DNA of 64,000 nt from Dehalococcoidia bacterium. Lineage in GTDB: Bacteria; Chloroflexota; Dehalococcoidia; Lucifugimonadales; DAOUAM01. Below are positions 6,620-62,794 of the stretch, in pieces (within the stretch, counting starts at the first letter, position 1; the number at the start of each line of letters is the position of its first letter). The position numbers and the translations under genes were made by a program. The stretch lies in contig DAOUAM010000054.1 of the NCBI GenBank assembly GCA_034433305.1, positions 3,366 to 67,365 of the forward strand, given 5' to 3'. The notes beneath the pieces were generated by a model. It was not told the DNA's origin. It worked only from the letters and a program-made list of their open reading frames with translations, and searched no databases.

Positions 6620-7096
6620 ATGCGCATCGCTATCGGCGGCGACCACTGGGGCCTGGAGCTAAAGTCCAGGCTCATACAGCACCTGGAGAAGCTTGGTCAC
6701 GAGGTGCTGGACGCGGGGGCCTACACCCACGACCCGACAGACGACTACCCGGACTTCGCCAGGGCCGTTGCCGAGCGGCTGGTGGCCGGCCAGGCCGACC
6801 GCGGCATAGTGGTCTGCGGCAGCGGCGTCGGCGCCTGCATCGCCGCCAACAAGGTCCGGGGCGTGCGAGCGGGCATCTGCCACGACACCTACTCGGCCCA
6901 CCAGGGCGTCGAGCACGACGACATGAACGTGCTATGCATGGGCTCGCGCATCGTGGGCGAGGAGCTGGCCAAGGAGATTGTTAACGCCTTCGTCTCGGCC
7001 AGCTTCACCGGCGAGGCCCGCCACCTCCGGCGGCTGCAAAAGGTCAAGGCCATCGAGGACAGCGGCATAGGCGCGGCAAGCCGGGCGACGGGCTAG
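6620..7096 (+). CDS. rpiB: Ribose-5-phosphate isomerase B (RpiB/LacA/LacB family)
   Basis: MRIAIGGDHWG..VVCGSGVGACIAANKVRGVRAG..DMNVLCMGSRIVG are hallmark RpiB motifs. Confidence 0.85.
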   Translation: MRIAIGGDHWGLELKSRLIQHLEKLGHEVLDAGAYTHDPTDDYPDFARAVAERLVAGQADRGIVVCGSGVGACIAANKVRGVRAGICHDTYSAHQGVEHDDMNVLCMGSRIVGEELAKEIVNAFVSASFTGEARHLRRLQKVKAIEDSGIGAASRATG

Positions 7097-7115
7097 ACAG
7101 GGGACAGGCCCTGTT

Positions 7116-7342
7116 AGAGGGTGTGTGAGAAACCTTGTTCTGGCCCTTACCGGGAGACATGGGGACGTGATGCAATTGATGCTGGGCTGGTATGCGGGCA
7201 AGGCCAGCCCCCTCTCTGACTCTCCCCCATAGGGGGCGAGGACCCTCCCTTCCCCCTGTGGGGGAAGGCCAGGAAGGGGGCCAAAGCGCCTTGCCTTGAC
7301 AAAGTCTCAGCCCTGCGGGGAACGAGTTCCCACACACCCTCT
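7116..7342 (+). repeat. MITE-like intergenic repeat, copy A (double hairpin core, terminal inverted repeats)
   Basis: TIRs AGAGGGTGTGTGAGAAAC (7116-7133) and GTTCCCACACACCCTCT (7326-7342). The core CCAGCCCCCTCTCTGACTCTCCCCCATAGGGGGCGAGG..CCTTCCCCCTGTGGGGGAAGG is shared with copies at 15259-15450 (inverted) and 39806-39976. Confidence 0.6.
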
Positions 7343-7452
7343 TATACCGGGCCTGCGCCAGCCGTCGCCGGACAGGCTGGCCCTGCGAGGCGGCTTGGCA
7401 ACACCCCCCCACAGGTACTGGGCCGCTCCGGTCGGGGTAGCCACAAGTCAGC

Positions 7453-9377: not shown

Positions 9378-9510
9378 AGCATCTGGACTCCCGAAGGTGT
9401 TTTCTGGCAGGTGGGATTATACCACCAGGCCCTCCCCTTCAGACTGGCATGACTGGCCGCCATCGCCTGCCCGCGCCCGTGCACCTGTGCCCAGGATATC
9501 CTCAAATACC

Positions 9511-9539
9511 TTGCTTAGAAAAGTGAAGCGCCGTATAAT
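9511..9539 (+). promoter_or_regulatory. Sigma-70-like promoter (TTGCTT, 17 nt, TATAAT)
   Basis: TTGCTT at 9511-9516 and a consensus TATAAT at 9534-9539. It sits about 180 nt upstream of the DUF5679 ORF. Confidence 0.5.
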
Positions 9540-9717
9540 TAGCGTTGCTCGCGGTGCCGCTGTCCCTTTTTCGCACCGGAGGCAGTCCATCCCCGGAACT
9601 ATCGGACGCTTCCGGCCGGCAGTCGCGGAGGGTGCCGCTCCTCCAGCTCGATCCAGCTCCCTTGATGAACGGGTCTTCGGTCTCATAACTCTTGACTTTG
9701 CCCCTGGAGGTTGTTTT

Positions 9718-9858
9718 ATGCAGGCTTATTGTCTCAAGTGTCGTGACCATCGCGAAATCCAGAACGCCCAGCCCATCACGCTGAAGAACGGCAGGCCGGC
9801 CACCCGTGGCACCTGCTCCAAGTGCGGCTCCCCGGTGTTCCGAATCGGCAAGGCCTGA
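9718..9858 (+). CDS. DUF5679-like small zinc-ribbon protein
   Basis: 46 aa: MQAYCLKCRDHREIQNAQPITLKNGRPATRGTCSKCGSPVFRIGKA, with two CxxC pairs. GGAGG upstream of ATG 9718. Confidence 0.65.
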   Translation: MQAYCLKCRDHREIQNAQPITLKNGRPATRGTCSKCGSPVFRIGKA

Positions 9859-10108
9859 TGCCTGGCCGGTTAGCACCTCGCCCGCCACGCGGCAGCGGGC
9901 ACCATGGCTTGCAGGGCCAGCGGCAGTGCGTGCATCCCTTCTCCCGCTTGAAGCCCCGGCATTGCCAGAGTCAAGCACCCTCAGGGCCTTGCCTACCCAC
10001 GCCGCGTACTTCCAGGGGCAGGGCCGGCTTATAAGTCTGTCAGCGCGACAGTCCGGGGTGTAGCGTCCAACGCTCCGGACTGTCGCAGGACAGCCTGCCC
10101 CAAGCGTC

Positions 10109-35491: not shown

Positions 35492-36967
35492 CTAGCTCTC
35501 AGGGATGCCGTAAACATCCACGAAGAAGTCGAAACGCTCGCGCCTGACCAGGCCAATCTCATAGGCCAGGGAGAAGGTCTCGCCCGGCTGGAGGATGCCA
35601 TCGCCCAGTGCTTCCGGTGGCACCGAGAGTATGGAGCCTACCCCACCCGACCCACCGTCCGCGTTGAGCACCACGTGGCCGCCAGATAGCACCATCACCA
35701 CCGTGTGCATGTCTGTGATGTCCACCGAGGAGATGTTCTTCCACGTGGCGGTTATGGTGTAAACGCCAGCGGGGGCGCGGTTATCGGCGGGATTGTAGGA
35801 GGTGGTGAGGTTTTGAAGGCTGAGCAGGTCATTGACCAGCACCGGCTCCGGTGCGCTGGCCGGCGTTACCTCCACCGTGACCAGGGCTATGTCAGTGCCG
35901 CCCTGGCCGTCGCTGACCGTGTAGGTGAAGGTGTCGGTGCCCTGAAAGCCGGAGGCGGGCTGGTAGGTCACTGTGCCGTCGGGGTTCACCTGCACTGTGC
36001 CGTTGGAGGCCTGGGTCACGGCGATCACTTCCAGGTCTGCGTTCTCGGGGTCCGAGTCGTTGTCCAGGACATCAACGTCCACCGGTGTCCCTGCTGGCGT
36101 GGACGCAGCGTCGTCCACCGCCACGGGCGGGCGCGTGTCCACGAAGCTCCCCGCCTTGATGAACACTGCCGAGTCCAGCAAGTCGTCACCGGCGTCGCCG
36201 ATGGCCAGCTTGATGTGGTTGGTCTCGTCGGCTATTACCTCGGCCTCGACCATCAGCACGACAGTGAGGCCGTCCAGCTCTGTGTTGACGGTGCCTCCGC
36301 CGTCGTCCAGGTCGTTGTTGATGTACAGGTCAGGGTGGCTGGCGTTTATGCCAAAGGGGTTGCCACCATTGACGTTGTTGATGGCTACGGGCGTGGCGTT
36401 GCCAGGAATGAGCGCAACGTTGTCCCCATTGAGAAAGAAGGCAAAGACGTCGTTGAAGGGGCTGTTGACAAACTCGTTATACTCTTCTGATGCGAAGACA
36501 TACTCAAAGGTAATGATGTCGTGGCTGGGAACGAAATCAAACTCCAGCACAGCCGCGTCGAAGGTCTGCACCTCCTGCTCCGCCACCAGCGCATCCAGGT
36601 CGTCGTCGCCCGGGGCGCCGTTGCTGCCTGACATGAAGTCGCTGAGGTTGGGCCCTGCCACGTCGGCTGCGGAGCCTGTGCTCAGGACAATGCCACTGTC
36701 GAACCCGATAATTCCATTCCCGCCGGTAAACGTGCCCGCGGCGGCTTCCACGCCGTGGTACTGGACGTTGCTCACGGTCACGTCGCCCCCACCCAAAAGA
36801 GCCGCCACCAGGTCTTCGGGAGTCTGGCCGGACAGATCAGAAACCACAAGGTCGCTATCGGCGTGTGCCTGGGTCACCCAGGAGAGCCAGAGGGCCACGG
36901 CCAGCAGCAGCGTCAGCTTCACCAGGATGCGACCGATGCCATCGGGGGCTACACCTGTCCTGTACAT
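35492..36967 (-). CDS. Secreted choice-of-anchor L domain protein with a cadherin-like/Ig repeat
   Basis: Signal peptide (LLLAVALWLSWVTQAHA). NVQYHGVEAAAGTFTGG..GIVLSTG..LEFDFVP..FEYVFASEEYNEF..NDVFAFFLNG..IGDAGDDLLDSAVFI. Then VAVDDAASTPAGTPVDVDVLDNDSDPE. GGAGG upstream of ATG 36967. Confidence 0.75.
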   Translation of the reverse strand: MYRTGVAPDGIGRILVKLTLLLAVALWLSWVTQAHADSDLVVSDLSGQTPEDLVAALLGGGDVTVSNVQYHGVEAAAGTFTGGNGIIGFDSGIVLSTGSAADVAGPNLSDFMSGSNGAPGDDDLDALVAEQEVQTFDAAVLEFDFVPSHDIITFEYVFASEEYNEFVNSPFNDVFAFFLNGDNVALIPGNATPVAINNVNGGNPFGINASHPDLYINNDLDDGGGTVNTELDGLTVVLMVEAEVIADETNHIKLAIGDAGDDLLDSAVFIKAGSFVDTRPPVAVDDAASTPAGTPVDVDVLDNDSDPENADLEVIAVTQASNGTVQVNPDGTVTYQPASGFQGTDTFTYTVSDGQGGTDIALVTVEVTPASAPEPVLVNDLLSLQNLTTSYNPADNRAPAGVYTITATWKNISSVDITDMHTVVMVLSGGHVVLNADGGSGGVGSILSVPPEALGDGILQPGETFSLAYEIGLVRRERFDFFVDVYGIPES

Positions 36968-37177
36968 AGGTCCTCCGCAAGGGCTTCCCGGCCCCTGGCC
37001 GCGGCCGGCGACGGCTGTATGCCTCCTGGCACGGCAGAGGCCGGGCAACACTGTTCCGACTTCGCTTTCCAGTACTGGAATGGACTCCCACGCCCCACTG
37101 GAAACATGCGGATGGACGCACACGAAGCGGGCGCTGAGTAACGCTGATGGCGCGGCCCTTGGGGTGGTCTGGCTGCC

Positions 37178-38266
37178 ATGAAGGTCCTCGCCGAAGCCGA
37201 GTTCCTGACCTGCTGCTGCCGCGAGGAGGCATCGCGGGACGCGGAGGCGCCGCGCACCAGTGCGGCGGCGGTACGGCGCTGGGAGCAGGTAGTCCTGCTG
37301 GCCGCCAGGCATGGGGTAGCTGGCCTGGTGCTACCCACCGTGGAGTCGTTAGCGCGGGAAGGAAGTGCCCCCCTGGAGGCCGAGGCAGGACTCCGGCGCA
37401 TCGCCGCGCTCCACGTCGCCAGGACGGCGCGCCTGCGGCTGGCCCTGACTGAGGTACTGGCCGCGGCGCGACAGCGCGGTGTGAAGGTCATGGTACTGAA
37501 AGGCGCGGCGCTGGGGACCATGCTCTACCAGGACCCACTGCTACGGCCCTCCCAGGACATAGACTTGCTCTGCCAGGAGACCGAATACGAAGGCGTGCGC
37601 GACACACTGCTGCGCCTGGGCTACACCACGCAGGACGGGCTTGCCACAGTCCGCCGGCGTGCTTCCCTGGAGACCCTTTTCGAGCGCCACTTTCAGCACC
37701 CCGACGGCCTCGTAGAGGTAGAGCTTCACACAGACTGCATCAAGCTGGGAGTAAGGCCCCGGCACTCCGAGGCCATCTGGGGCAGGGCGATGGCCGTGGA
37801 GATAGACGGCGAGCCAGCCCTGACGCTGGCCCCGGACGACCAGGTGCTGGTGCTGAGCATCCACCTGCACCGGCACGGCTTCAACAGGCTCATCTGGTTC
37901 AAGGACATGGACCTGCTGCTGCGCCTGTACGGGCCCTCGCTGGACTGGGAGAGGATATGCGCCGAGGCTGGCAGCGAAGGGGCGACGCCATCCCTCTGGT
38001 ACACCCTGAGCTTGCTGGCTGCCATCCTCCACCCACCCATTCCGCCGGAGGTGCTGCGCGTGACAAGGCCGCCGGCTATCATCAGATGGGCGCTGGCGCG
38101 TATCTGGCCGGAAGCGGAGGTCGTGAACCTGCGGAGCAAGACCAGGAGGCGGGCCGTCCAGTTCAGCGTGCATGAGTCCTGGCGCGGGACGCTGCCCAGC
38201 CTGGTGCTGATGGGCCGCAGGCGCGAGAAGGTCGGCATACTGCTGCGCCGCCTGCTGCCAGGCTAG
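37178..38266 (+). CDS. Uncharacterised nucleotidyltransferase family protein (PF14907-like)
   Basis: 362 aa. SQDIDLLC, VELHTD and FKDMDLL motifs, plus the N-terminal 'rescue' helix region typical of the family seen next to PqqD/HprK-like genes. Confidence 0.6.
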   Translation: MKVLAEAEFLTCCCREEASRDAEAPRTSAAAVRRWEQVVLLAARHGVAGLVLPTVESLAREGSAPLEAEAGLRRIAALHVARTARLRLALTEVLAAARQRGVKVMVLKGAALGTMLYQDPLLRPSQDIDLLCQETEYEGVRDTLLRLGYTTQDGLATVRRRASLETLFERHFQHPDGLVEVELHTDCIKLGVRPRHSEAIWGRAMAVEIDGEPALTLAPDDQVLVLSIHLHRHGFNRLIWFKDMDLLLRLYGPSLDWERICAEAGSEGATPSLWYTLSLLAAILHPPIPPEVLRVTRPPAIIRWALARIWPEAEVVNLRSKTRRRAVQFSVHESWRGTLPSLVLMGRRREKVGILLRRLLPG

Positions 38267-46165: not shown

Positions 46166-46876
46166 TCAGGCCTTCCCCATATAGCCGCACACACCAGACC
46201 TGGGGGAGTTGACCACTGGCATGAGTTCGTCTAGCATGCTCTCGTGGTCGGCGGCGCAAGCATCGCAAAACAGGCCCTTGCCTTCCCAGTTACACTCAGG
46301 GCAAATCTGGGTGGCCGGCGCTCCGCAGTTGGAGCAGCGCTGGTCGGGGGGGTCGTTCCGGGCCAGAAGCCTGATCTTCTTCCCTGGGGCATCGGCGGGG
46401 CGTTCCAACTCTACCTTAAGGACAAGCTCTGTGGTCGTGCCGAAGTCGTACTCATGGTAGAACTTCATGCCAGGCTTGAGGACATTCCCGAGAGGATGGC
46501 CCAGGTCCTCCTCATCATCCTCGTCAATCCAGAAAGATGACCGCTCTGGCATGGCAGTGTACCGCTTGCCCTCGATGGTGAAGGCGCTCATGTGGCCGCA
46601 GCACTCCAGCCAGATGTCCCTGAGGAACTCGTCCAGGTCCTCCAGGGTAGCGGTCGCGGGCGCCTCGAGGTGAAGCCAGTACACCTTGGATGCCGCTCGT
46701 GGCTCCACGATCAGGTGGAAACTCGTGCTTTGCCTGGCCTTCTTACGCGGGGGCCTCAAAGGGAACCGCGCCTGACACGTCTCCAGGTGCCTGACCATCG
46801 CCCGCTTGCCGAAGCTGGCGTTGCAGAACACGCACCTGCCCTTGGTGCCCCTGGGCCTCTCTGCCTTCTCTGCCAT
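46166..46876 (-). CDS. Hypothetical zinc-ribbon protein, possibly pRiA4b ORF-3-like
   Basis: N-terminal CVFC..H..C and C-terminal CSNCG..CPEC..CDAC zinc ribbons. The central LEDLDEFLRDIWLECCGHMSAFTI..YEYDFG resembles the pRiA4b ORF-3 fold pattern. Confidence 0.35.
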   Translation of the reverse strand: MAEKAERPRGTKGRCVFCNASFGKRAMVRHLETCQARFPLRPPRKKARQSTSFHLIVEPRAASKVYWLHLEAPATATLEDLDEFLRDIWLECCGHMSAFTIEGKRYTAMPERSSFWIDEDDEEDLGHPLGNVLKPGMKFYHEYDFGTTTELVLKVELERPADAPGKKIRLLARNDPPDQRCSNCGAPATQICPECNWEGKGLFCDACAADHESMLDELMPVVNSPRSGVCGYMGKA

Positions 46877-47871: not shown

Positions 47872-49026
47872 GTGAAGTTTGGCTTCTTCATGATGCCGTC
47901 GCACTCACACCGCGATAATCCCACCCTGGCCTTTGAGCGAGACTTACAGCTCATCGAGTACGCCGAGGGCCTGGGCTTCGACGAGTTCTGGGTCGGAGAG
48001 CACCATTCCGGCGGCTGGGAGACCATCCCAGCACCTGACATCTTCCTGGCGGCCGCCGCCACCCGCACCAGGAGGATTCGCCTGGGCACGGCAGTCATAA
48101 ACCTGCCATACCATCACCCCTTCCACGTGGCCGAGCGCATGGCCTTTCTGGACCACCTGGCCTACGGGCGCATCATGCTGGGCTGCGGGCCGGGCGTGCT
48201 TTCGCCTGACATCAAGCTCTTCGGCCTGGACCCAACAGAGCTGCGGCCCATGATGAACGAGTCCCTGGAAATCATCCTGAAGCTCTACCGTGAGGACGGG
48301 CCTGTCAGCTACGAGGGCAAGTACTGGCAGATAAGGGATATGGAGATTCAGGTGAAGCCCTACCAGCAGCCCCATCTGCCCGTGTTCCTGGTCAGCTCGG
48401 GCAGCGGCAACAGCGTCCGGGAAGCAGCAAGGCACGGCTTGCCGGTCATATCGGGCGTCTTCACCCTGCCCACCGCCCTTGGCCTGCGCCAGCAGTGGGA
48501 CCTCTACGAGCAGGAGGCCAGGACGCGAGGCCACAGCGTGAGCCGCGACGAGTGGCGGCTGTCCACCAACATCTACCTGGCCGACTCCACGGAGGAGGCT
48601 ATACGCGACATAGCCTCCGGCGCCATGGCCGAGATGCGCCAGTACTTCTTCAACAACGGCGGCAAGCCCACCTATGAGGCCTACCCCGGCCAGCCCGCCG
48701 ATGAGATAACCATCGAGCAGGTGATAGCCCAGCGCCGCTGGATTATCGGCGACCCGGACTACTGCATCAGGCGGATAAGGGAACTGCAGGAGGAGACAGG
48801 CGGCTTCGGCGCCCTGCTCATGGTGGCAGTGGAGTGGACCTCCACGGAGAAGTGGCGCCGCTCCCTGGAGCTATTCGCCCGGTACGTGATGCCCCAGTTC
48901 AGGGGCACGCTGCGCGGCATCCAGCGTGCCTGGGAGCGCATGGTGGAGGACAACCGCGCCGGCCGGCTGCCCAACGCCCGCTCCGGCGTCGTACGGGTGG
49001 ATGGCGGCCAGCAGCGGACGGGGTAG
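47872..49026 (+). CDS. LLM-class (luciferase-like) flavin-dependent oxidoreductase
   Basis: FDEFWVGEHHS.. and RIRLGTAVINLPYHHP motifs. GTG start preceded by AGGAGG. Confidence 0.85.
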   Translation: MKFGFFMMPSHSHRDNPTLAFERDLQLIEYAEGLGFDEFWVGEHHSGGWETIPAPDIFLAAAATRTRRIRLGTAVINLPYHHPFHVAERMAFLDHLAYGRIMLGCGPGVLSPDIKLFGLDPTELRPMMNESLEIILKLYREDGPVSYEGKYWQIRDMEIQVKPYQQPHLPVFLVSSGSGNSVREAARHGLPVISGVFTLPTALGLRQQWDLYEQEARTRGHSVSRDEWRLSTNIYLADSTEEAIRDIASGAMAEMRQYFFNNGGKPTYEAYPGQPADEITIEQVIAQRRWIIGDPDYCIRRIRELQEETGGFGALLMVAVEWTSTEKWRRSLELFARYVMPQFRGTLRGIQRAWERMVEDNRAGRLPNARSGVVRVDGGQQRTG

Positions 49027-49084
49027 GACTACCAGGCGGGATGCCCACCAGGCTGCCACTGGCACCATGATCTCTGGAGCCCGC

Positions 49085-50686
49085 CTACTGCGCCGAGGAA
49101 GAAGCCTGGCTTACCAGAAAGGGGACTTCATAGATTATATCCCCGTTCTGCGCCTCCACCTTGAAGGTGTAGTCTCCAGGGGTTACGGTGCTGTCAATAG
49201 TGACCACCAGCAACGAATTGGAGACCAGCGTGGCGGGCAGGTGGACCCCCTCGATGGTGCCCTGCACCGGCCTGAGGAAGACCACGGAGACCCGGTCCAG
49301 GTTCGAGCCTATCACCCGTACCTGCTGGCCAACGCTAGTCGAGGTCGGGGTGACGTCCACGACCTCAGGCACAGGTCCGGGCCGGGTGAGAACATAGGTG
49401 GTGACCGCCGCCGCGGCACCCACCACGCCCAGGGCGACGATAATCAGGAGCAACGCCGGCGACCGGGGGAAAGAGGCCTGCCGCGCCACCGGCGCTGGAG
49501 GGGCAGCACTCTGGGATGCTGGAGTCACACTCTGGGTCAAGCGGAGCATCTCGTCGGCCCTTTTGATCTCGCGCTCGTAGCGATTGGCTATGTCGGCATT
49601 CTCGCGTTTAAGGGCCTCGACTTCCCGCTGGTACCTCTCGTTCTGGGCGCGCAGCTCCTGGACCTCGGCGGCCTGCCTGGCTCGCTCCTGCTCCTCCTGC
49701 CTCAGCTTTTCGTTGCTGGCCTCGATGGCCCTGTTGATTTCATCCACCAGCTTGTTCCAGCCGTCCACCTGCTCCCTTTTCCATTTTCGCGTCACTACCC
49801 GCAGAATATCGGCGAAGGCCGTGATGAGCGCATAGGAAAAATGGGAGGCAGGTGCGTGGAGGAAGGGGATCTTCTGGGTCTTGTATGCCTTGAGGGCCTC
49901 CACATCCAGGGGTACGGGATGAGTGTCCTCATAGCGCACCGGGAACTCTTTGGTAAGCTCCAGCCGGAACCCCGCTTCCATCTTGCTCAGGTCCAGATGG
50001 TTGGAACCCTGGCCGGTCTCGGTTGCCTTGTTGACGATAATGGCCCGTAGCAGCGGCTTCCTCTGGAGTTCGTTGGCCGCGGCGCTGACACGCTGGACCA
50101 GGTTCCTGTCCTGGTAGAACGAGGTGTAGTCGGCCTCGGTGACGACAATGAAGCTATCGGCCAGGGCGCAGACGTCGGTGCTCTCGAAGTTGAACCCTCC
50201 CCGCGTGTCCACCAGCACGTAGTCAAAGGTGGCCTGCGACCTCAACGTGTCGAAGAGGGCCTGGACGGCCTGGCGGAAGGTGGCACGGTCGAGAGGCGGC
50301 ACGGGTGGCCTCACGCCGTCCTCCGGCAGGTCTCCATAAAGCTCCTTACTGCTGATGAGGGCCTCGTAGATTACTCCGTGGTCCGCCGTCCCGCTGCGGT
50401 TGATGGGTTGGGGGCTGAAGGCGAGGTTGCCGCCTGCCAGGAAGCCCCTCAAGACGCCGCTGAAGGTGCTCTCCTGAGGGAGTTCGTTTATGTGCCTCAT
50501 TCCCTGAGGGCCGAGGAGGAACAGGGACAGGCCATCGGTGGCGGTGTCGGCATCAATCATCAGCACGCGGTGGCCGGTGCGGGTGAGGGCATAGCCCAGG
50601 CTGGCGGCTATCACCGTCTTGCCAGTCCCGCCCTTGCCGCTGCTGAACGCGATGATCTCGAGGTGCCCTGACTCCTGAATTGCCAT
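49085..50686 (-). CDS. Membrane-anchored ParA/MinD-like P-loop ATPase with coiled coil, TM helix and IPT/TIG-like C-terminal domain
   Basis: Deviant Walker A SSGKGGTGKT and DADTATDG. A long heptad-rich segment (EKLRQEEQERARQAAEVQELRAQNERYQREVEALKRENADI). TM helix LLLIIVALGVVGAAAAVTTYVL. The C-terminal beta-rich segment VTPTSTSVGQQVRVIGSNL..GDYTFKV. Confidence 0.7.
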   Translation of the reverse strand: MAIQESGHLEIIAFSSGKGGTGKTVIAASLGYALTRTGHRVLMIDADTATDGLSLFLLGPQGMRHINELPQESTFSGVLRGFLAGGNLAFSPQPINRSGTADHGVIYEALISSKELYGDLPEDGVRPPVPPLDRATFRQAVQALFDTLRSQATFDYVLVDTRGGFNFESTDVCALADSFIVVTEADYTSFYQDRNLVQRVSAAANELQRKPLLRAIIVNKATETGQGSNHLDLSKMEAGFRLELTKEFPVRYEDTHPVPLDVEALKAYKTQKIPFLHAPASHFSYALITAFADILRVVTRKWKREQVDGWNKLVDEINRAIEASNEKLRQEEQERARQAAEVQELRAQNERYQREVEALKRENADIANRYEREIKRADEMLRLTQSVTPASQSAAPPAPVARQASFPRSPALLLIIVALGVVGAAAAVTTYVLTRPGPVPEVVDVTPTSTSVGQQVRVIGSNLDRVSVVFLRPVQGTIEGVHLPATLVSNSLLVVTIDSTVTPGDYTFKVEAQNGDIIYEVPFLVSQASSSAQ

Positions 50687-50711
50687 GGGCTAGGGGGCGC
50701 TCCTTGACCCC

Positions 50712-50921
50712 TCACATATGCGTGATTACTGAGACTCGTGGGAAACCCGGCGGGCGGTCTGGCGTCCTGATGTCAGGGTCGTTGGCCGTGTACTTTCCCT
50801 CCTCAGGTGCCGTGGAGATGCGGCCCAGGCTGCCATAGCCAGGCCCGCTCACTCGGCCTCCCGCCAGCCCAGAGTAGTCGGTAGGTGGGGGCACAGGCCC
50901 GGACCCTGGGAACTGGTTCAT
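50712..50921 (-). CDS. Small Pro/Gly-rich ORF, apparently translationally coupled (ATGA overlap) to the upstream gene
   Basis: 69 aa. Its ATG overlaps the stop of the 50918-51250 ORF. It ends 25 nt before the ParA-like start. No recognisable domain. Confidence 0.35.
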   Translation of the reverse strand: MNQFPGSGPVPPPTDYSGLAGGRVSGPGYGSLGRISTAPEEGKYTANDPDIRTPDRPPGFPRVSVITHM

Positions 50922-51587
50922 TGCTGACCACCCTTGGGGCTGACCTTCTCCATAAACCTCGCTCTAAGCTCACTGTCCTTGATGTTGAGTTGGCGGTGCA
51001 GGGCCACAGCGTTCACACAGGCGTCCGGCCCGGGGTAAAACGGGTCCACGTGGGTTGTCCACAGCAACTGGAACTGGCGGGCGGCGTCCAGGAACGCCTC
51101 CCGCGACTCAAGGTATGCCTGGGCGCGCTCCTGGGAGTTGCTGAAGTTCTCCAGGTTGGCCAGGATGGCGAGAATAGCCGCACCCACGGCGGCGATGAGA
51201 GAGATTCTCCAGGAGGCCCATCCAGAAGCTCCTCGTCGGCTCCACCGCATTGACGTAGGCGGCCAGGAGGTTCAGGATGGCGACAACGCCCGTGCTGATT
51301 ATTATGGTCCAGCGCCATCTCCTGTGGGACCTGGTGTACTCCTTATACCGCTCCACGCACAGGTTGGAGGAATTGTAGAACTCCATCAAGATGTTGGTAT
51401 AGGTCTCGTGGACCCGGCTTATAAACTCTTTGCGTTGCTCCTCGGTCCGATTAGGCTCAGCCCAGGCTTCTCTGCGGGCCTCGACCAGGGCACCATCGAG
51501 GAGCGGCTCAGGCCGTTCCGGGGCAGTCGCCGGCCCTGGGGCCACAGGCCCGACTGGCCCAACGCGGTGTCCTCTGTCATCGTCCAT
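50918..51587 (-). pseudogene. Two-TM SLATT-like protein split by an apparent +1/-1 frameshift near 51205-51245
   Basis: ORF 51108-51587 carries TM1 (WRWTIIISTGVVAILNLLAAYV). ORF 50918-51250 carries TM2 (WRISLIAAVGAAILAILANL) plus a C-terminal helix. The two frames overlap by 143 nt. Confidence 0.35.
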
Positions 51588-51714
51588 CCTGAGCTCCTAA
51601 TGCCCCAGGGACGCTAGGACTACGCTGGCCGCTCCTCTCTACATTCAGCCCGCCAACATGAGGGACTGCCCATCCAGGCCGCCAGGAACGCAGCTTTGCC
51701 CTTCCTGGATGGAC

Positions 51715-51743
51715 TAGTTACTCCGACATAATTCTTATGTCAA
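51715..51743 (-). promoter_or_regulatory. Sigma-70-like promoter (TTGACA, 17 nt, TAACTA) overlapped by a 7-bp palindrome
   Basis: Minus-strand TTGACA at 51743-51738 and TAACTA at 51720-51715. The palindrome GACATAA-nnn-TTATGTC at 51725-51741 spans the -35/spacer. Confidence 0.4.
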
Positions 51744-51875
51744 GTGCCACTGCAACCCTCTTATTCGTCCGTCGCCTGGCATCGTGCGCCGGCCGACCCG
51801 CCGCCATGACTGGCCCATTTCCCCCGCGCAGTCAGACAGCGCGGCCAGCAAATCGCTCGGGAGGAGGGGTAGTGG

Positions 51876-52211
51876 CTACTTTTTCTTCCAGTCCCTGGCC
51901 CAGTTGGCGTCGGTGGGCCAGATGTTGTGGGCGCCCCGGCCCGCCCCCTTGGGGCCTTCGACGCGCCAGTCCTTCGTGGCATCACGCCACTTGATGAAGT
52001 GGGGCTGCTTCAGGTGTTCCTGGAAGGCGGCCTCGTCCCTGTACACCTCGTACAGCCAGATGCGATTGGGGTCCTCCCCGTCCTGGACGACGTCGAAGCG
52101 CAGGCAGCCTGGCTCGTTCTTCACCGACCCCTCGGCATCGGCGATCATTTCCTTGATGAACTGCTCCTTGAAGCCCGGCTTTATCTGGATAGGCGCCACG
52201 ATAACGTACAT
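51876..52211 (-). CDS. Antibiotic biosynthesis monooxygenase (ABM) domain protein
   Basis: 111 aa with a ferredoxin-like ABM pattern (EPGCLRFDVVQD..IWLYEVYRDEAAFQEHLKQPHF). Confidence 0.8.
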   Translation of the reverse strand: MYVIVAPIQIKPGFKEQFIKEMIADAEGSVKNEPGCLRFDVVQDGEDPNRIWLYEVYRDEAAFQEHLKQPHFIKWRDATKDWRVEGPKGAGRGAHNIWPTDANWARDWKKK

Positions 52212-59828: not shown

Positions 59829-60485
59829 CTACTCGTCTATGACCACCAGCCCCTCACGGGCCGCGTGAACAATCGCCTCCGCCCTGCTCTTCACGCCAAG
59901 CTTGCTATAGATGCTGGTCAGATGGAACTGGACGGTCGCCAGGGAAACGTGCAGGCGCTCGGCAATCTCAGGGTTGGAAGCGCCGTCCACCAGTAGCTGA
60001 AGTATCTCCGCCTCTTTGTCCGTTAGCCTGTCGGACAGGGCCGTGCGCCCGTTGGAAGACTGGCCCAGGTAGCCCTGCACCACCTTCCGGCTCACCTGAG
60101 TGGAGAAAACGGTGCGCCCGGACTTTACCATGCGAAGGGACTCTATGACCTCCCTGGGAGGCGTGTCTTTCAGCACGTAGCCCTCGACCCCCAGCTCCAT
60201 CATGGCCCGAATGTATGGTTCGTTGGAGTAGTTGGTCAGCACTACGACTCGGACATCCGGGTAGTGGACGCGGATGCGCCTGACCAGTTCCACTCCGTTG
60301 ATCTCGCCCTTGAGCCGGATGTCCGTCAGGACAACATCTGGCCTGGCCCTGTTCAGCACCTCCAGTGCCTCCAAGGCGCTCGCCACATCGCCCGCGATCT
60401 CGAAGTCAGGCTCCCCTGACAGGGTAGCTACAACCCCGGCCCGGAAGATCGGGTGGTCGTCAATTATCAGGACGCTGATCATCAA
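59829..60485 (-). CDS. NarL/LuxR-type response regulator (ComA-like position)
   Basis: REC domain (VLIIDDHP..DVVLTDIRL) and a C-terminal LuxR HTH (LTDKEAEILQLLVDGASNPEIAERLHVSLATVQFH). It overlaps the kinase stop by 4 nt. Confidence 0.9.
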   Translation of the reverse strand: MMISVLIIDDHPIFRAGVVATLSGEPDFEIAGDVASALEALEVLNRARPDVVLTDIRLKGEINGVELVRRIRVHYPDVRVVVLTNYSNEPYIRAMMELGVEGYVLKDTPPREVIESLRMVKSGRTVFSTQVSRKVVQGYLGQSSNGRTALSDRLTDKEAEILQLLVDGASNPEIAERLHVSLATVQFHLTSIYSKLGVKSRAEAIVHAAREGLVVIDE

Positions 60486-62794
60486 GAGTTACCTCTGCCA
60501 TTGACTCCTTGCAATCTGGACGGACCATCTATGGGAAGTGACGCCACCACCGTCGTCCCTGACGGACTGCGGGGCAAAATCAGCAGACGCCCCCCGAGCT
60601 GCTCCGCTCTTTCCCGCATCCCGATGACACCAAGCTTGGTGCCAGGGGAGAGGTCCCTGGTCTGCTGAAAGCCGACACCATCGTCCTCTATGGTCAGGGT
60701 CACCCGGTCTTCTTCCCAGGCCAGGTGGACCCAGACGGTGCTGGCGCTGGCATGCCGCCGGCAGTTGGTCAGCGCCTCCTGGGCTATCCTGTACAGGGCA
60801 AGCTGAATCTCCGGAGGGACGTAGCCATCGCGCTCCACAGGTTCGTAGCTAAAGACCACTTTGAAGCCGGAGGCGGCGCTGGCCTCTGTCCCCAGCCACT
60901 CCAGCGCCCGCACCAGCCCCAGGTCTTCCAGCAGGGCAGGATGCAGCCTGGCCGTGAAGTTACACAGGTCCTCCGCAATGCGCTGGAGCTTCTGCTGGAC
61001 CTCAGAGGAAAGCCCGGCGCCTGCGTGCTGCCAGATAACGTTGGTGATCTGCTGAAGCGGCTCATCGTGGATGTAGGAGGCGATGCGCGCTCGCTCGGTC
61101 TCCTGGGCCTGCACCAGCCGGCGGTTCAGCTCCCTCAGCTCCCCAGCCTTGGAGCGGAGTTCCTCCAGCAACTCCAGCTTCTCCACAATAGTAGCCATAT
61201 GCCCCGCAACGGACTCCGCCAGCTTCATGTCCTCTCGCTGAAAAGGCTCCTCGGTTACCTTGGGGCCGAAGCAGAGGACCCAGGTCTCGTGCGGCTGCCT
61301 CTTGAGCTTCACCATAAGCACGTGCTCGGCGTACAGGTCCGTGGAAAGCCGCAAGAGCGACAAGCCCTGCTCAGCCTTGCCTTCTTCCTTCGAGTCCAGC
61401 AGCGGTACCAGGCCATCCGGGACTGTGCCGACCGAGGCCTTCACCTTGGCCCCATCGTCCGAAAGCCCGATGAAGGATGCAAAAGACAGCCTCAGTTCCC
61501 GGACGATGGTGCCCAGCACCGTCGTGGCCAGGTCGTCGAAATGCTTGGCATAGGCGGCGTGGATGCTGACACGCCGGGCCAGGTCGGCATGGTCTATGTA
61601 CTCCCGGTAGAGCAGCCTGTCCACCGCCGCGAAGGCCAGCCGCCTCGTCCCGGACATGGACGGGACGGCCACGAACAGGGCCGCCAGCAAGAATAGCTCT
61701 GCCGCCACGTTCTCGCTCACCTCGGGGCCACCTACCTGTCCCAGTGTGGCAATGAGCGCGCCATACAGGACAAAGACGCAGAAGGAAATCAGGGCGTAGG
61801 CCGCGCCTCTGTGCACCAGGCGCCGAATGCCCATGAGATGGTGCCGCATTATGGCGTACCCGAAGGACAGGGGTATCAGAGTAAGGCCGAGCACCGTGAC
61901 CTCAGGGCGCAGGACGAAGGGCAGGCCAGCCGCCGCTGGCAGCACACTGAAGATGATTATTGGCCCTACCGCGGCCGCGGTACCGACGGCCATGATGCGG
62001 ACCTGCTCCCTGGTGACCGGTGAGCGCGCCCCCAGATAAGTCCATGCCAGCAGGACCACTCCGCCCAGGAACGCCGCGCCCACGTAGGCGAAGGTAAGCC
62101 GCCTTACCGTGTCAAAGACCTCGGGCACGGCCAGTACGCCCACCACCCAGAGGACGTCGAGCAGCAGGGCAATGGCCAACATCATGGCCGGCACCAGCCA
62201 GTGGCGCCTCCGCGCGAATATGTAGAAGAAGAACAGGAACAGCACTGACATCCAGTGGACAAGGGGCGCCTCTGCCAGTTGCGCCAGGATGTTGGACCGC
62301 GCGGTCGCCGGGGCCAGCACTATGACTATGGCGGCCACCAGAAGGAACAGCGCCAGCGTCAGGACCTGGAGCGAACGCCTGGAGCGGAAAAACACCAGGA
62401 AACCAGTTACCGCGAAGACCAAGCCAATGGCCCAGAGGCTGGCTATGAGCGAATTGGGCGGCTGCGGCGACCGGCCCGACAACTCCAGACTCTCTCCGCC
62501 CCGGACAGACAGCACCCTGAACTCCTTCCCCCGGTCACCACCCCTGACACTCCAGGTCCGCCGGGTGATGTCAGTCCCATCTATTGCGAGAAGCACATCC
62601 CCTACCCTGACTCCAGTGTCCCAGGCGGGCGTCCCGGGACGCACCCATGTGACTACCGCCTTGCCGTCCTGGGCAAAAGCCACGTCCACTCCAAGTCGGG
62701 GTTCGCCCAGCCATACCACCACCGCCAGCACAAGTCCTGCTGGAAATGAAATGGCAAGAAGCCACCATAAAGTTGTTGCTGCCCTGGTAAACAC
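60482..62794 (-). CDS. Polytopic sensor histidine kinase (TM1, PDZ-like loop, multi-TM, HisKA_3, HATPase_c); ComP-like architecture
   Basis: 770 aa. PDZ-like GVRVGDVLLAIDG after TM1. At least 7 further TM helices. H-box YIHDEPLQ. HATPase N/G boxes (EALTNCRRHA, DDGVGF, GMRERA). GTG start. Confidence 0.85.
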   Translation of the reverse strand: MFTRAATTLWWLLAISFPAGLVLAVVVWLGEPRLGVDVAFAQDGKAVVTWVRPGTPAWDTGVRVGDVLLAIDGTDITRRTWSVRGGDRGKEFRVLSVRGGESLELSGRSPQPPNSLIASLWAIGLVFAVTGFLVFFRSRRSLQVLTLALFLLVAAIVIVLAPATARSNILAQLAEAPLVHWMSVLFLFFFYIFARRRHWLVPAMMLAIALLLDVLWVVGVLAVPEVFDTVRRLTFAYVGAAFLGGVVLLAWTYLGARSPVTREQVRIMAVGTAAAVGPIIIFSVLPAAAGLPFVLRPEVTVLGLTLIPLSFGYAIMRHHLMGIRRLVHRGAAYALISFCVFVLYGALIATLGQVGGPEVSENVAAELFLLAALFVAVPSMSGTRRLAFAAVDRLLYREYIDHADLARRVSIHAAYAKHFDDLATTVLGTIVRELRLSFASFIGLSDDGAKVKASVGTVPDGLVPLLDSKEEGKAEQGLSLLRLSTDLYAEHVLMVKLKRQPHETWVLCFGPKVTEEPFQREDMKLAESVAGHMATIVEKLELLEELRSKAGELRELNRRLVQAQETERARIASYIHDEPLQQITNVIWQHAGAGLSSEVQQKLQRIAEDLCNFTARLHPALLEDLGLVRALEWLGTEASAASGFKVVFSYEPVERDGYVPPEIQLALYRIAQEALTNCRRHASASTVWVHLAWEEDRVTLTIEDDGVGFQQTRDLSPGTKLGVIGMRERAEQLGGRLLILPRSPSGTTVVASLPIDGPSRLQGVNGRGNS

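Follow-up and report, generated by a model that had tools for sequence, protein, structure and literature searches.

A membrane-anchored MinD/ParA-type ATPase linked to a SLATT-superfamily protein and a small protein in a conserved three-gene module

In a stretch of 64,000 nt from a Dehalococcoidia bacterium (contig DAOUAM010000054.1, positions 3,366 to 67,365; called “the window” in the following), we analysed three adjacent genes on the reverse strand. They encode a SLATT/DUF4231-superfamily protein with two transmembrane (TM) helices (gene 1), a small soluble protein (gene 2), and an ATPase of the MinD/ParA type that is predicted to be anchored in the membrane and to expose an immunoglobulin (Ig)-like domain to the outside (gene 3). 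The three genes form an obligate, translationally coupled linkage, and the module is accessory and decaying. Our leading interpretation, at best an even bet, is an accessory module of the conflict or abortive-infection type, in which a sensor on the outside would act on an ATP-dependent dimer switch and thereby on the opening of a SLATT pore, while the small protein would serve as a regulator.

Linkage of the three genes

The genes are given here in the order of their transcription, together with the evidence used for their assignment.

50918 to 51587, reverse strand: gene 1, two-TM protein of the SLATT/DUF4231 superfamily with one frameshift (three-frame translation, alignment, profiles)
50712 to 50921, reverse strand: gene 2, conserved soluble small protein of 69 aa (list of open reading frames (ORFs), alignment A4)
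49085 to 50686, reverse strand: gene 3, membrane-anchored MinD/ParA-type ATPase of 533 aa (ORF list, Pfam, AlphaFold2, Foldseek)

The ATG of gene 2 overlaps the TGA of gene 1 as ATGA (50918-50921), and gene 2 ends 25 nt before gene 3. The same gene order, i.e. SLATT two-TM protein, small protein, ATPase, is kept in all five neighbourhoods of ATPase homologues, which comprise a metagenome contig (L001), Granulicella arctica (L002, ATPase WP_263381704.1), and three further loci (L083-L085). In each of them, an ORF of 58-71 aa precedes the ATPase gene and an ORF of about 200-226 aa precedes the small one, the latter being cut by the contig end in L001. The junctions are overlaps of 1-11 nt or gaps of <20 nt. 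Starting from the SLATT gene instead, a scan of metagenome contigs retrieved 33 loci. In all 27 loci whose downstream sequence extends for 430 nt or more, the ATPase gene lies 220-320 nt downstream on the same strand, with a small ORF in between, while the remaining six have <300 nt of downstream sequence and no ATPase gene. The trio of ATPase, micro-ORF and two-TM gene, whose conservation an earlier reading based on the sequence alone (the sequence-only reading) had put forward for checking, is thus retained in 5/5 and 27/27 loci, with the qualification that the two-TM gene of the window is split over two frames (see below).

Domain structure and fold of the ATPase protein

Gene 3 is, according to the structure model, a MinD/ParA-fold ATPase with a stalk, a single TM helix, and an outward-facing IPT/TIG-like Ig domain.

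49787 to 50686, reverse strand: ATPase domain, residues 1-300 (invariant alignment columns, AlphaFold2, Foldseek)
49529 to 49777, reverse strand: coiled-coil stalk, residues 304-386 (AlphaFold2 helix, heptad periodicity, weak Pfam coiled-coil matches)
49400 to 49456, reverse strand: single TM helix, residues ~411-429, N-in/C-out (hydropathy, bias of Lys/Arg in the flanks)
49109 to 49360, reverse strand: extracytoplasmic IPT/TIG-like domain (E-set Ig), residues 443-526 (AlphaFold2, Foldseek)

Residues 16-24, SGKGGTGKT, form a deviant Walker A motif, with the signature Lys of KGGTGKT at position 18, as the sequence-only reading had recognised. In agreement with that reading, two Pfam models match gene 3 above threshold, AAA_31 (1.2e-12) and CbiA (3e-12), both of them generic. 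The AlphaFold2 model was built on 29 family sequences and has a mean predicted local distance difference test score (pLDDT) of 82.5, with values >90 for the ATPase domain. A Foldseek search of the PDB with this domain gave MinD, Soj, FlhG, FleN, McdA and ParA as the top 30 matches (E 5e-11 to 4e-9); the target-normalised TM-scores against MinD, Soj, FlhG, FleN and McdA are 0.64-0.76 at 15-22% identity.

The stalk is modelled as one unbroken helix of 83 residues (304-386). In its best heptad register, 57% of the a/d positions are hydrophobic, compared with 20% overall, and 45% of the residues are charged, which bears out the earlier proposal of a coiled coil rich in Glu, Arg and Gln. Behind it, the model shows a linker of low confidence, then a short helix that coincides with the hydrophobic segment, and finally a domain that consists of beta strands only (443-526, pLDDT 81-91). 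The hydrophobic segment has a mean Kyte-Doolittle value of 2.65 and, at a position conserved in the family (see below), represents the one TM helix that had been proposed. The bias of Lys/Arg to its N-terminal side and the absence of a signal peptide speak for an ATPase in the cytoplasm and a C-terminus beyond the membrane, i.e. the unusual topology with the ATPase inside and the Ig domain outside that the sequence-only reading had suggested.

Modelled alone, the C-terminal domain has nine strands and a pLDDT of 84.9. Its Foldseek matches in the PDB are E-set and IPT/TIG domains (E 2e-5 to 1e-3), the best being the C-terminal E-set domain of galactose oxidase (TMq 0.69-0.72), the dimerisation/IPT domain of NF-kB p50, the DBB domain of BCAP, the TIG domain of CAMTA1, and the IPT/TIG domains of EBF1/3. 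The Pfam TIG/IPT profile does not match it, Y_Y_Y being the only Pfam match (E = 0.15), and NCBIfam gives only a choice-of-anchor Z repeat (E = 0.005). The resemblance to IPT/TIG domains noted previously therefore holds at the level of the modelled fold, but not at that of the profile.

One could argue that gene 3 encodes a ParA/MinD ATPase of the usual kind, for partition or division, or a bacterial tyrosine kinase (BY-kinase)/polysaccharide co-polymerase of the Wzc type, and that its neighbours are incidental. Generic Pfam and NCBIfam models (MinD, ParA, BcsQ, eps_fam) do match the P-loop region, and one source labels the Granulicella homologue “ParA family protein”. However, the NCBIfam models of named subfamilies match only residues ~10-60 and remain far under their cut-offs, i.e. 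minD_arch (55 bits vs a cut-off of 202), minD_bact (53 vs 213), ParA_partition (38 vs 180), and BcsQ (35 vs 158), as do the models of the BY-kinase type, eps_fam (31 vs 108) and EpsG (24 vs 314). Matches in a PDB sequence search were likewise confined to the P-loop. Neither ParB, parS, MinC nor MinE is encoded nearby, and the actual neighbours are obligately linked. Where MinD has an amphipathic membrane-targeting helix, the ATPase domain runs into the coiled coil and a true, hydrophobic TM helix with an outward domain behind it. A C-terminal tyrosine cluster is missing, the topology is the reverse of that of Wzc, and no BY-kinase is found among the top 50 structural matches, so that the earlier judgement that the arrangement differs from that of BY-kinases is well founded. 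Taken together, profiles, topology, fold matches and linkage effectively exclude both classical identities, and we regard this alternative as highly improbable.

The ATPase family and its exchangeable outer domains

A homologue search over 5.8 billion proteins yielded 241 relatives of gene 3, and the family counts given here refer to the best 120 of them. Their identity is 43-59%, in alignments that cover the N-terminal 60-95% of the query. When 1.84 billion cluster representatives were searched exhaustively with phmmer, 130 clusters (at 50% identity) had E <= 1e-30. The family is thus real and recurrent, yet rare and patchy. A profile scan of genome contigs with the ATPase alignment, which made use of generic Walker A/B patterns, returned only ordinary MinD/ParA genes with 22-30% identity and no orthologues.

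The motif KGGxGK[ST] is present in 111 of the 120 homologues, and those without it look N-terminally truncated. In an alignment of 29 sequences (A1), six residues are invariant that correspond to the signature Lys (K18), the Walker A motif (G22 and its Lys, K23), the switch I Asp pair (D45, D47), and the Walker B Asp (D160). The same alignment revealed invariant motifs that are specific for the family, i.e. VDTRGGF.FE in the switch II region, TSFYQDRNL, SFR..L, and W302/W310 at the start of the stalk. Because the catalytic as well as the family motifs are invariant, the ATPase is predicted to be catalytically competent.

When the window protein is added (121 members), a single strongly hydrophobic segment is found in 114, mostly at about residue 400 and in some as early as about residue 330. 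The 15 residues before this segment contain more Lys/Arg than the 15 residues behind it in 97 of the 114 proteins, and fewer in only four. The C-terminal domain, in contrast, is not conserved even among close homologues. Pentapeptide repeats take its place in 49 of the 120, and others have NBR1-like Ig, CarboxypepD_reg, Sel1, PKD, TonB_C, BNR or LRR domains. Among the relatives examined, the IPT-like domain of the window protein is shared only with one homologue (P0001), which has two tandem copies. The outer domain is therefore exchangeable, whereas the ATPase core and the TM helix are conserved across relatives.

The small protein

An ORF of 58-71 aa occupies the position of gene 2 in all 32 related loci that contain the interval. 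The alignment of 25 of these small proteins shows a common signature, PTDFxGLA, followed after about nine residues by a Tyr and then by AT..G.YE.N..GI.KP..LP.Y.PP, and the window copy fits this signature. Gene 2 is thus a real conserved gene. It has no match in Pfam, NCBIfam or PADLOC and no similarity to MinE or ParB. The sequence-only reading had described it as a Pro/Gly-rich ORF whose start overlaps the preceding stop codon; its presence, conservation and ATGA overlap stand, but the richness in Pro and Gly is peculiar to this high-GC copy.

The two-TM gene and its frameshift

In the window, the two TM helices of gene 1 are encoded in separate reading frames, as revealed by three-frame translation.

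51587 to ~51215, reverse strand: frame A of gene 1, N-terminal cytoplasmic region and TM1 WTIIISTGVVAILNLLAAYV
~51215 to 50918, reverse strand: frame B of gene 1, TM2 ISLIAAVGAAILAILANL and the C-terminal helices

When the frames are joined, the protein has 223 aa and aligns end to end with 18 intact homologues of 201-232 aa (A2). All 18 have two adjacent TM helices between conserved helical regions in one polypeptide. The periodicity of the G+C content at third codon positions (GC3) places the frame switch at about 51200-51230. Long ORFs with high GC3 cover 85% of the window, which is a normal gene density and makes a real mutation of gene 1 plausible. A programmed frameshift was considered and rejected, as the 18 homologues are all single intact ORFs.

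Pfam DUF4231, which we take to be placed in the SLATT clan, is matched by 18 of the 19 members of the two-TM family (best value 2.7e-7); the Granulicella homologue reaches 25.1 bits against a gathering score of 24.7. The NCBIfam models SLATT_1, SLATT_4 and SLATT_5 give sub-threshold matches (8.9e-7 to 3e-3), and the PADLOC models for SLATT proteins associated with reverse transcriptases (RTs) and for the two-TM effector of CBASS match weakly. On the basis of the two-TM layout of the intact homologues and of these matches, gene 1 is assigned to the SLATT superfamily. This identity, the frameshift, the interchangeable C-terminal domains, and the recurrence of the architecture in a whole family, as opposed to a single fusion event, all go beyond the sequence-only reading.

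Upstream, at 51460-51590 on the reverse strand, the GC3 maximum (0.85-0.95) is not in the frame that aligns with the homologues but in another one, which contains an ORF of 53 aa (51419-51580). A second frameshift near 51455 was rejected, because the family-invariant residues W42 and R52 align in frame A. The upstream GC3 peak is likely to be misleading, because the N-terminus of the SLATT protein is rich in Pro, Gly and Ala and is not conserved.

Loss of the module in close relatives

49542 to 51724: segment of 2,183 bp that is missing from syntenic contigs with 94-96% identity (loci L119-L121, blastn, junction sequences)
51725 to 51741, reverse strand: palindrome GACATAA-gaa-TTATGTC, overlapping a TTGACA hexamer, 138 nt upstream of gene 1

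The deleted segment spans the leader of gene 1, genes 1 and 2, and ATPase residues 1-381. The blastn break points are 51725 and 49541, and the junctions are clean. What remains is a stump of 134 aa (P0191), which comprises the TM helix and the IPT-like domain, is 95% identical to residues 401-533 of gene 3, and immediately follows the upstream palindrome. Six contigs encode it, of which three, each from a different sequencing run, were examined and are syntenic with the window at 94-96% identity. The module is thus accessory and decaying, and in the genome of the window it is probably a non-functional relic, because its SLATT gene is frameshifted.

In the relatives, the palindrome reads GACGTAA-aa-TTACGTC (L119 3480-3495, L120 4934-4949), i.e. 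both arms are changed and the inverted repeat is kept. The palindrome is a possible operator or promoter element, or it may form a hairpin. A simple scan for sigma-70 promoters and for terminators from 48900 to 52000 revealed nothing above chance and no promoter site.

In another lineage, the coding sequence of a Sel1-type member is divided between an ORF of 287 aa and one of 368 aa (ENA contig of 273,769 bp; P0071/P0367/P0368). The first ORF departs from the intact protein P0071 (663 aa) after “...FHATHGVP”. The split gene (P0368 + P0367) may represent a third case of inactivation, i.e. a frameshifted allele, or else an indel of long-read sequencing or an assembly error. The start of P0071 itself is probably mis-annotated, because the protein was called without its P-loop.

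Genomic context

The window is chromosomal and encodes, e.g., AlaRS, Lon and AroK-AroB; its AlaRS shares 72% identity with the enzyme of a Chloroflexi metagenome-assembled genome. We inspected the surroundings of the module in 12 loci. The flanks are unrelated to each other in all of them and are mostly metabolic or housekeeping genes, including those for argininosuccinate lyase, orotidine monophosphate (OMP) decarboxylase, a sigma and an anti-sigma factor, a pseudouridine synthase, methyltransferases, a radical-SAM enzyme, a transketolase, and a GMC oxidoreductase. An IS1595-family transposase is located next to one module (L099 1944-2882) and a UPF0175/DUF3368 toxin-antitoxin pair next to another (L085 2630-3145); these are the only hints of mobility around the modules.

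Comparison with known systems

Gene 3 shares with the MinD/ParA group (MinD, Soj/ParA, FlhG/FleN, McdA; SIMIBI class) the fold, the KGGxGK[ST] motif, the signature Lys and the switch Asps, as well as an association with the membrane and an adjacent gene for a small partner, comparable to MinE with MinD and ParB with ParA. In contrast to this group, it has its own switch II motif (VDTRGGF.FE) at 15-22% identity and an extracytoplasmic domain, and it is paired with a SLATT protein and with an unrelated protein of about 65 aa. The coiled coil and the TM helix anchor it permanently, whereas the amphipathic helix of MinD binds reversibly.

In CBASS, RADAR, AbiA and DRT systems, SLATT proteins are effectors that are predicted to form pores. 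Defence by DRT10 genetically requires SLATT, and how SLATT becomes activated has been described there as a central open question. DUF4231 has been cited as enriched in defence islands. The systems that we compared were those with the two-TM effector of CBASS, the RdrD-type accessory protein of RADAR, AbiA/UG23, DRT3, and the RT-SLATT pair of DRT10/UG17. Like the trio, they are small, self-contained, patchy modules, in which a two-TM SLATT protein is tightly and often overlappingly linked to a cytoplasmic enzyme that uses nucleoside triphosphates. The partner in the trio, however, is a MinD/ParA ATPase with a TM helix and an outer domain rather than a nucleotidyltransferase, a SLOG protein or an RT, and neither a generator of second messengers nor a non-coding RNA is evident. 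Moreover, the SLATT protein of the trio matches Pfam DUF4231 and none of the families SLATT_1-6 at threshold, and neither defence islands nor mobile elements were found to contain the trio.

In concept, the trio also resembles Zorya (ZorAB) and Kiwa (KwaAB), in which a membrane complex with a long coiled coil reports events at the envelope to an effector. There is no homology to these systems, the match of PADLOC ZorA to the stalk being at chance level (E = 0.03), and in the trio the switch would be a MinD/ParA ATPase and the effector a SLATT protein. BY-kinases of the Wzc type have in common with gene 3 a P-loop domain of the same broad class, a link to the membrane, and a coiled-coil region. 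Their order and topology are opposite to those of gene 3, which has an N-terminal ATPase domain, a single TM helix, and its C-terminus outside; the tyrosine cluster, the profile scores and the fold matches set it apart as well.

Possible function of the module

MinD/ParA ATPases act as switches through ATP-dependent dimerisation, and small partner peptides tune their hydrolysis of ATP. On this background, the following mechanism can be envisaged. The ATPase protein would reside in the membrane as a coiled-coil dimer, with its nucleotide-binding domains in the cytoplasm and an exchangeable binding domain outside, here one with an IPT/TIG Ig fold. Engagement or disturbance of the outer domain, e.g. 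by a phage, envelope damage or a foreign cell surface, could be relayed via the TM helix and the stalk and might alter the ATP-dependent sandwich-dimer state of the MinD/ParA domains. This state would control the neighbouring SLATT protein, the predicted pore former, and once open, the pore would depolarise the membrane, so that the cell would be arrested or die, in the manner of abortive infection and other responses to conflict. The small protein may act as a cytoplasmic regulator that tunes ATP hydrolysis, like MinE or ParB peptides, or that bridges or plugs the SLATT protein.

The sequence-only reading had left the choice between a signalling, a positioning and a conflict component. We favour conflict or signalling, with the function itself remaining conjectural, because the gene is obligately linked to a SLATT protein and because the module is accessory and in decay. 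A conflict module would likewise agree with outer domains that are swapped, with a patchy distribution, with flanks that differ between carriers, and with repeated loss.

Several points weigh against this interpretation. The sensing role, the ATP switch, pore formation, the role of the small protein, and the biological purpose of the module are inferred, and pore formation by SLATT proteins is itself mostly a prediction. Recognisable defence islands are not present around the module in the 12 loci inspected, and we found no copies on phage records, viral contigs or plasmids. The usual partner of SLATT proteins is missing, i.e. neither the trio nor the flanks of the 12 loci contain a SMODS, SLOG, TIR or RT gene. 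Screening the components against the system models of PADLOC-DB 2.0 gave weak or partial matches only; for the ATPase, these were PDC-M28B over the P-loop (residues 7-60, 3.6e-8) and chance-level coiled-coil matches. Pentapeptide repeats and Sel1 are not classical extracellular receptors. Loss of a gene is expected for any dispensable gene, beyond immune or toxic ones, and the frameshift in gene 1 could be an assembly error.

Some of these observations would also suit an envelope module outside conflict, in which the SLATT-like protein serves normal physiology as a regulated channel or scaffold and is positioned, assembled or gated by the tethered ATPase, e.g. in the release of solutes, nucleotides or extracellular DNA, in surface sensing, or in developmental or biofilm signalling, with the outer domain as an anchor to the wall or matrix. 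MinD/ParA proteins are classically positioning or assembly factors, and MinD, Soj, FlhG and McdA are the closest folds; the surroundings are of the housekeeping type and mobile-element copies are lacking; and TonB_C, CarboxypepD_reg, PKD and IPT are typical wall- or matrix-binding modules. Such a role is harder to reconcile with a family that is so rare and patchy (130 clusters among 1.84 billion representatives), with a genomic context that differs wholly between carriers, with the deletion in close relatives and the frameshift in the window, and with a two-TM protein whose relatives are known only from conflict systems. We therefore consider an envelope module a serious but doubtful possibility.

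The coupling of the small protein in translation, right behind a putative membrane toxin, raises the question of whether the trio could be a toxin-antitoxin-like addiction or stress module, with SLATT as the toxin, the small protein as its direct antidote, and the ATPase as a chaperone- or insertase-like controller that does not sense anything outside. The inactivation of the putative toxin gene in the window, the loss of the cassette in relatives, and the toxin-antitoxin pair that adjoins one locus are compatible with this idea. It would, however, leave unexplained why the ATPase protein has a conserved TM helix and a highly variable outward domain, and the trio was not found on plasmids or phages, which often carry toxin-antitoxin modules of the classical kind. 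This makes an addiction module unlikely.

The conflict interpretation can be extended further. The trio might represent a new class of outside-in immune or conflict receptors, in which a transmembrane MinD/ParA protein recognises invaders or envelope damage with interchangeable outer domains (IPT, pentapeptide, NBR1-like, PKD, Sel1 and others), is tuned by a partner of about 65 aa, and opens a SLATT pore without a nucleotide second messenger. We regard this extended version as possible, if rather speculative. All components belong to known superfamilies, i.e. MinD/ParA, SLATT/DUF4231, and E-set Ig; what is apparently new is their combination, that is a SLATT effector with a new type of controller. 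We found no literature that links SLATT/DUF4231 with a ParA/MinD ATPase in one module, in a search that did not extend to the original description of SLATT (Burroughs et al. 2015); one paper contains both terms, in separate systems.

Other features of the window

46166 to 46876, reverse strand: protein of 236 aa, four genes away from the module, with a domain like PRiA4_ORF3 and ends that are rich in Cys and resemble zinc ribbons; the gene call in the relatives is 173 aa
55808 to 57073, forward strand: ORF of 421 aa with a PHP-like N-terminus (HLHS...) and no Pfam match at E <= 1e-5
35492 to 37312, reverse strand: protein of 606 aa with Big_9 and cadherin-like domains, probably a surface protein
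60482 to 62794, reverse strand: protein of 770 aa with an N-terminal PDZ and a C-terminal HATPase_c domain, an unusual sensor-kinase-like layout
1283 to 2108, 6917 to 7452, and 9378 to 10108: segments of 536-826 nt each without a long high-GC3 ORF, which could hold RNA genes or short or disrupted genes

The orthologue of the 421-aa ORF in one of the relatives (L120) has a precomputed match to PF27218 (MJ0043_C), and the ORF presumably resembles endonuclease Q.

Implications

If the proposed model is true, SLATT pores would be controllable by a protein switch, beyond signals made of nucleotides or nucleic acids, which bears on the question of how SLATT proteins are activated. To act as transmembrane receptors with modular outer domains would be a new role for MinD/ParA ATPases, and soil bacteria of the Acidobacteriota and Chloroflexota-like groups, about whose defence repertoires little is known, would acquire a candidate system for envelope surveillance. 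The alleles with the frameshift or the deletion, in strains that are nearly identical, are natural material for comparison. Should the model be wrong, the trio would still be a well-defined, conserved three-gene family, the members of which are annotated merely as “ParA family protein” or “hypothetical”.

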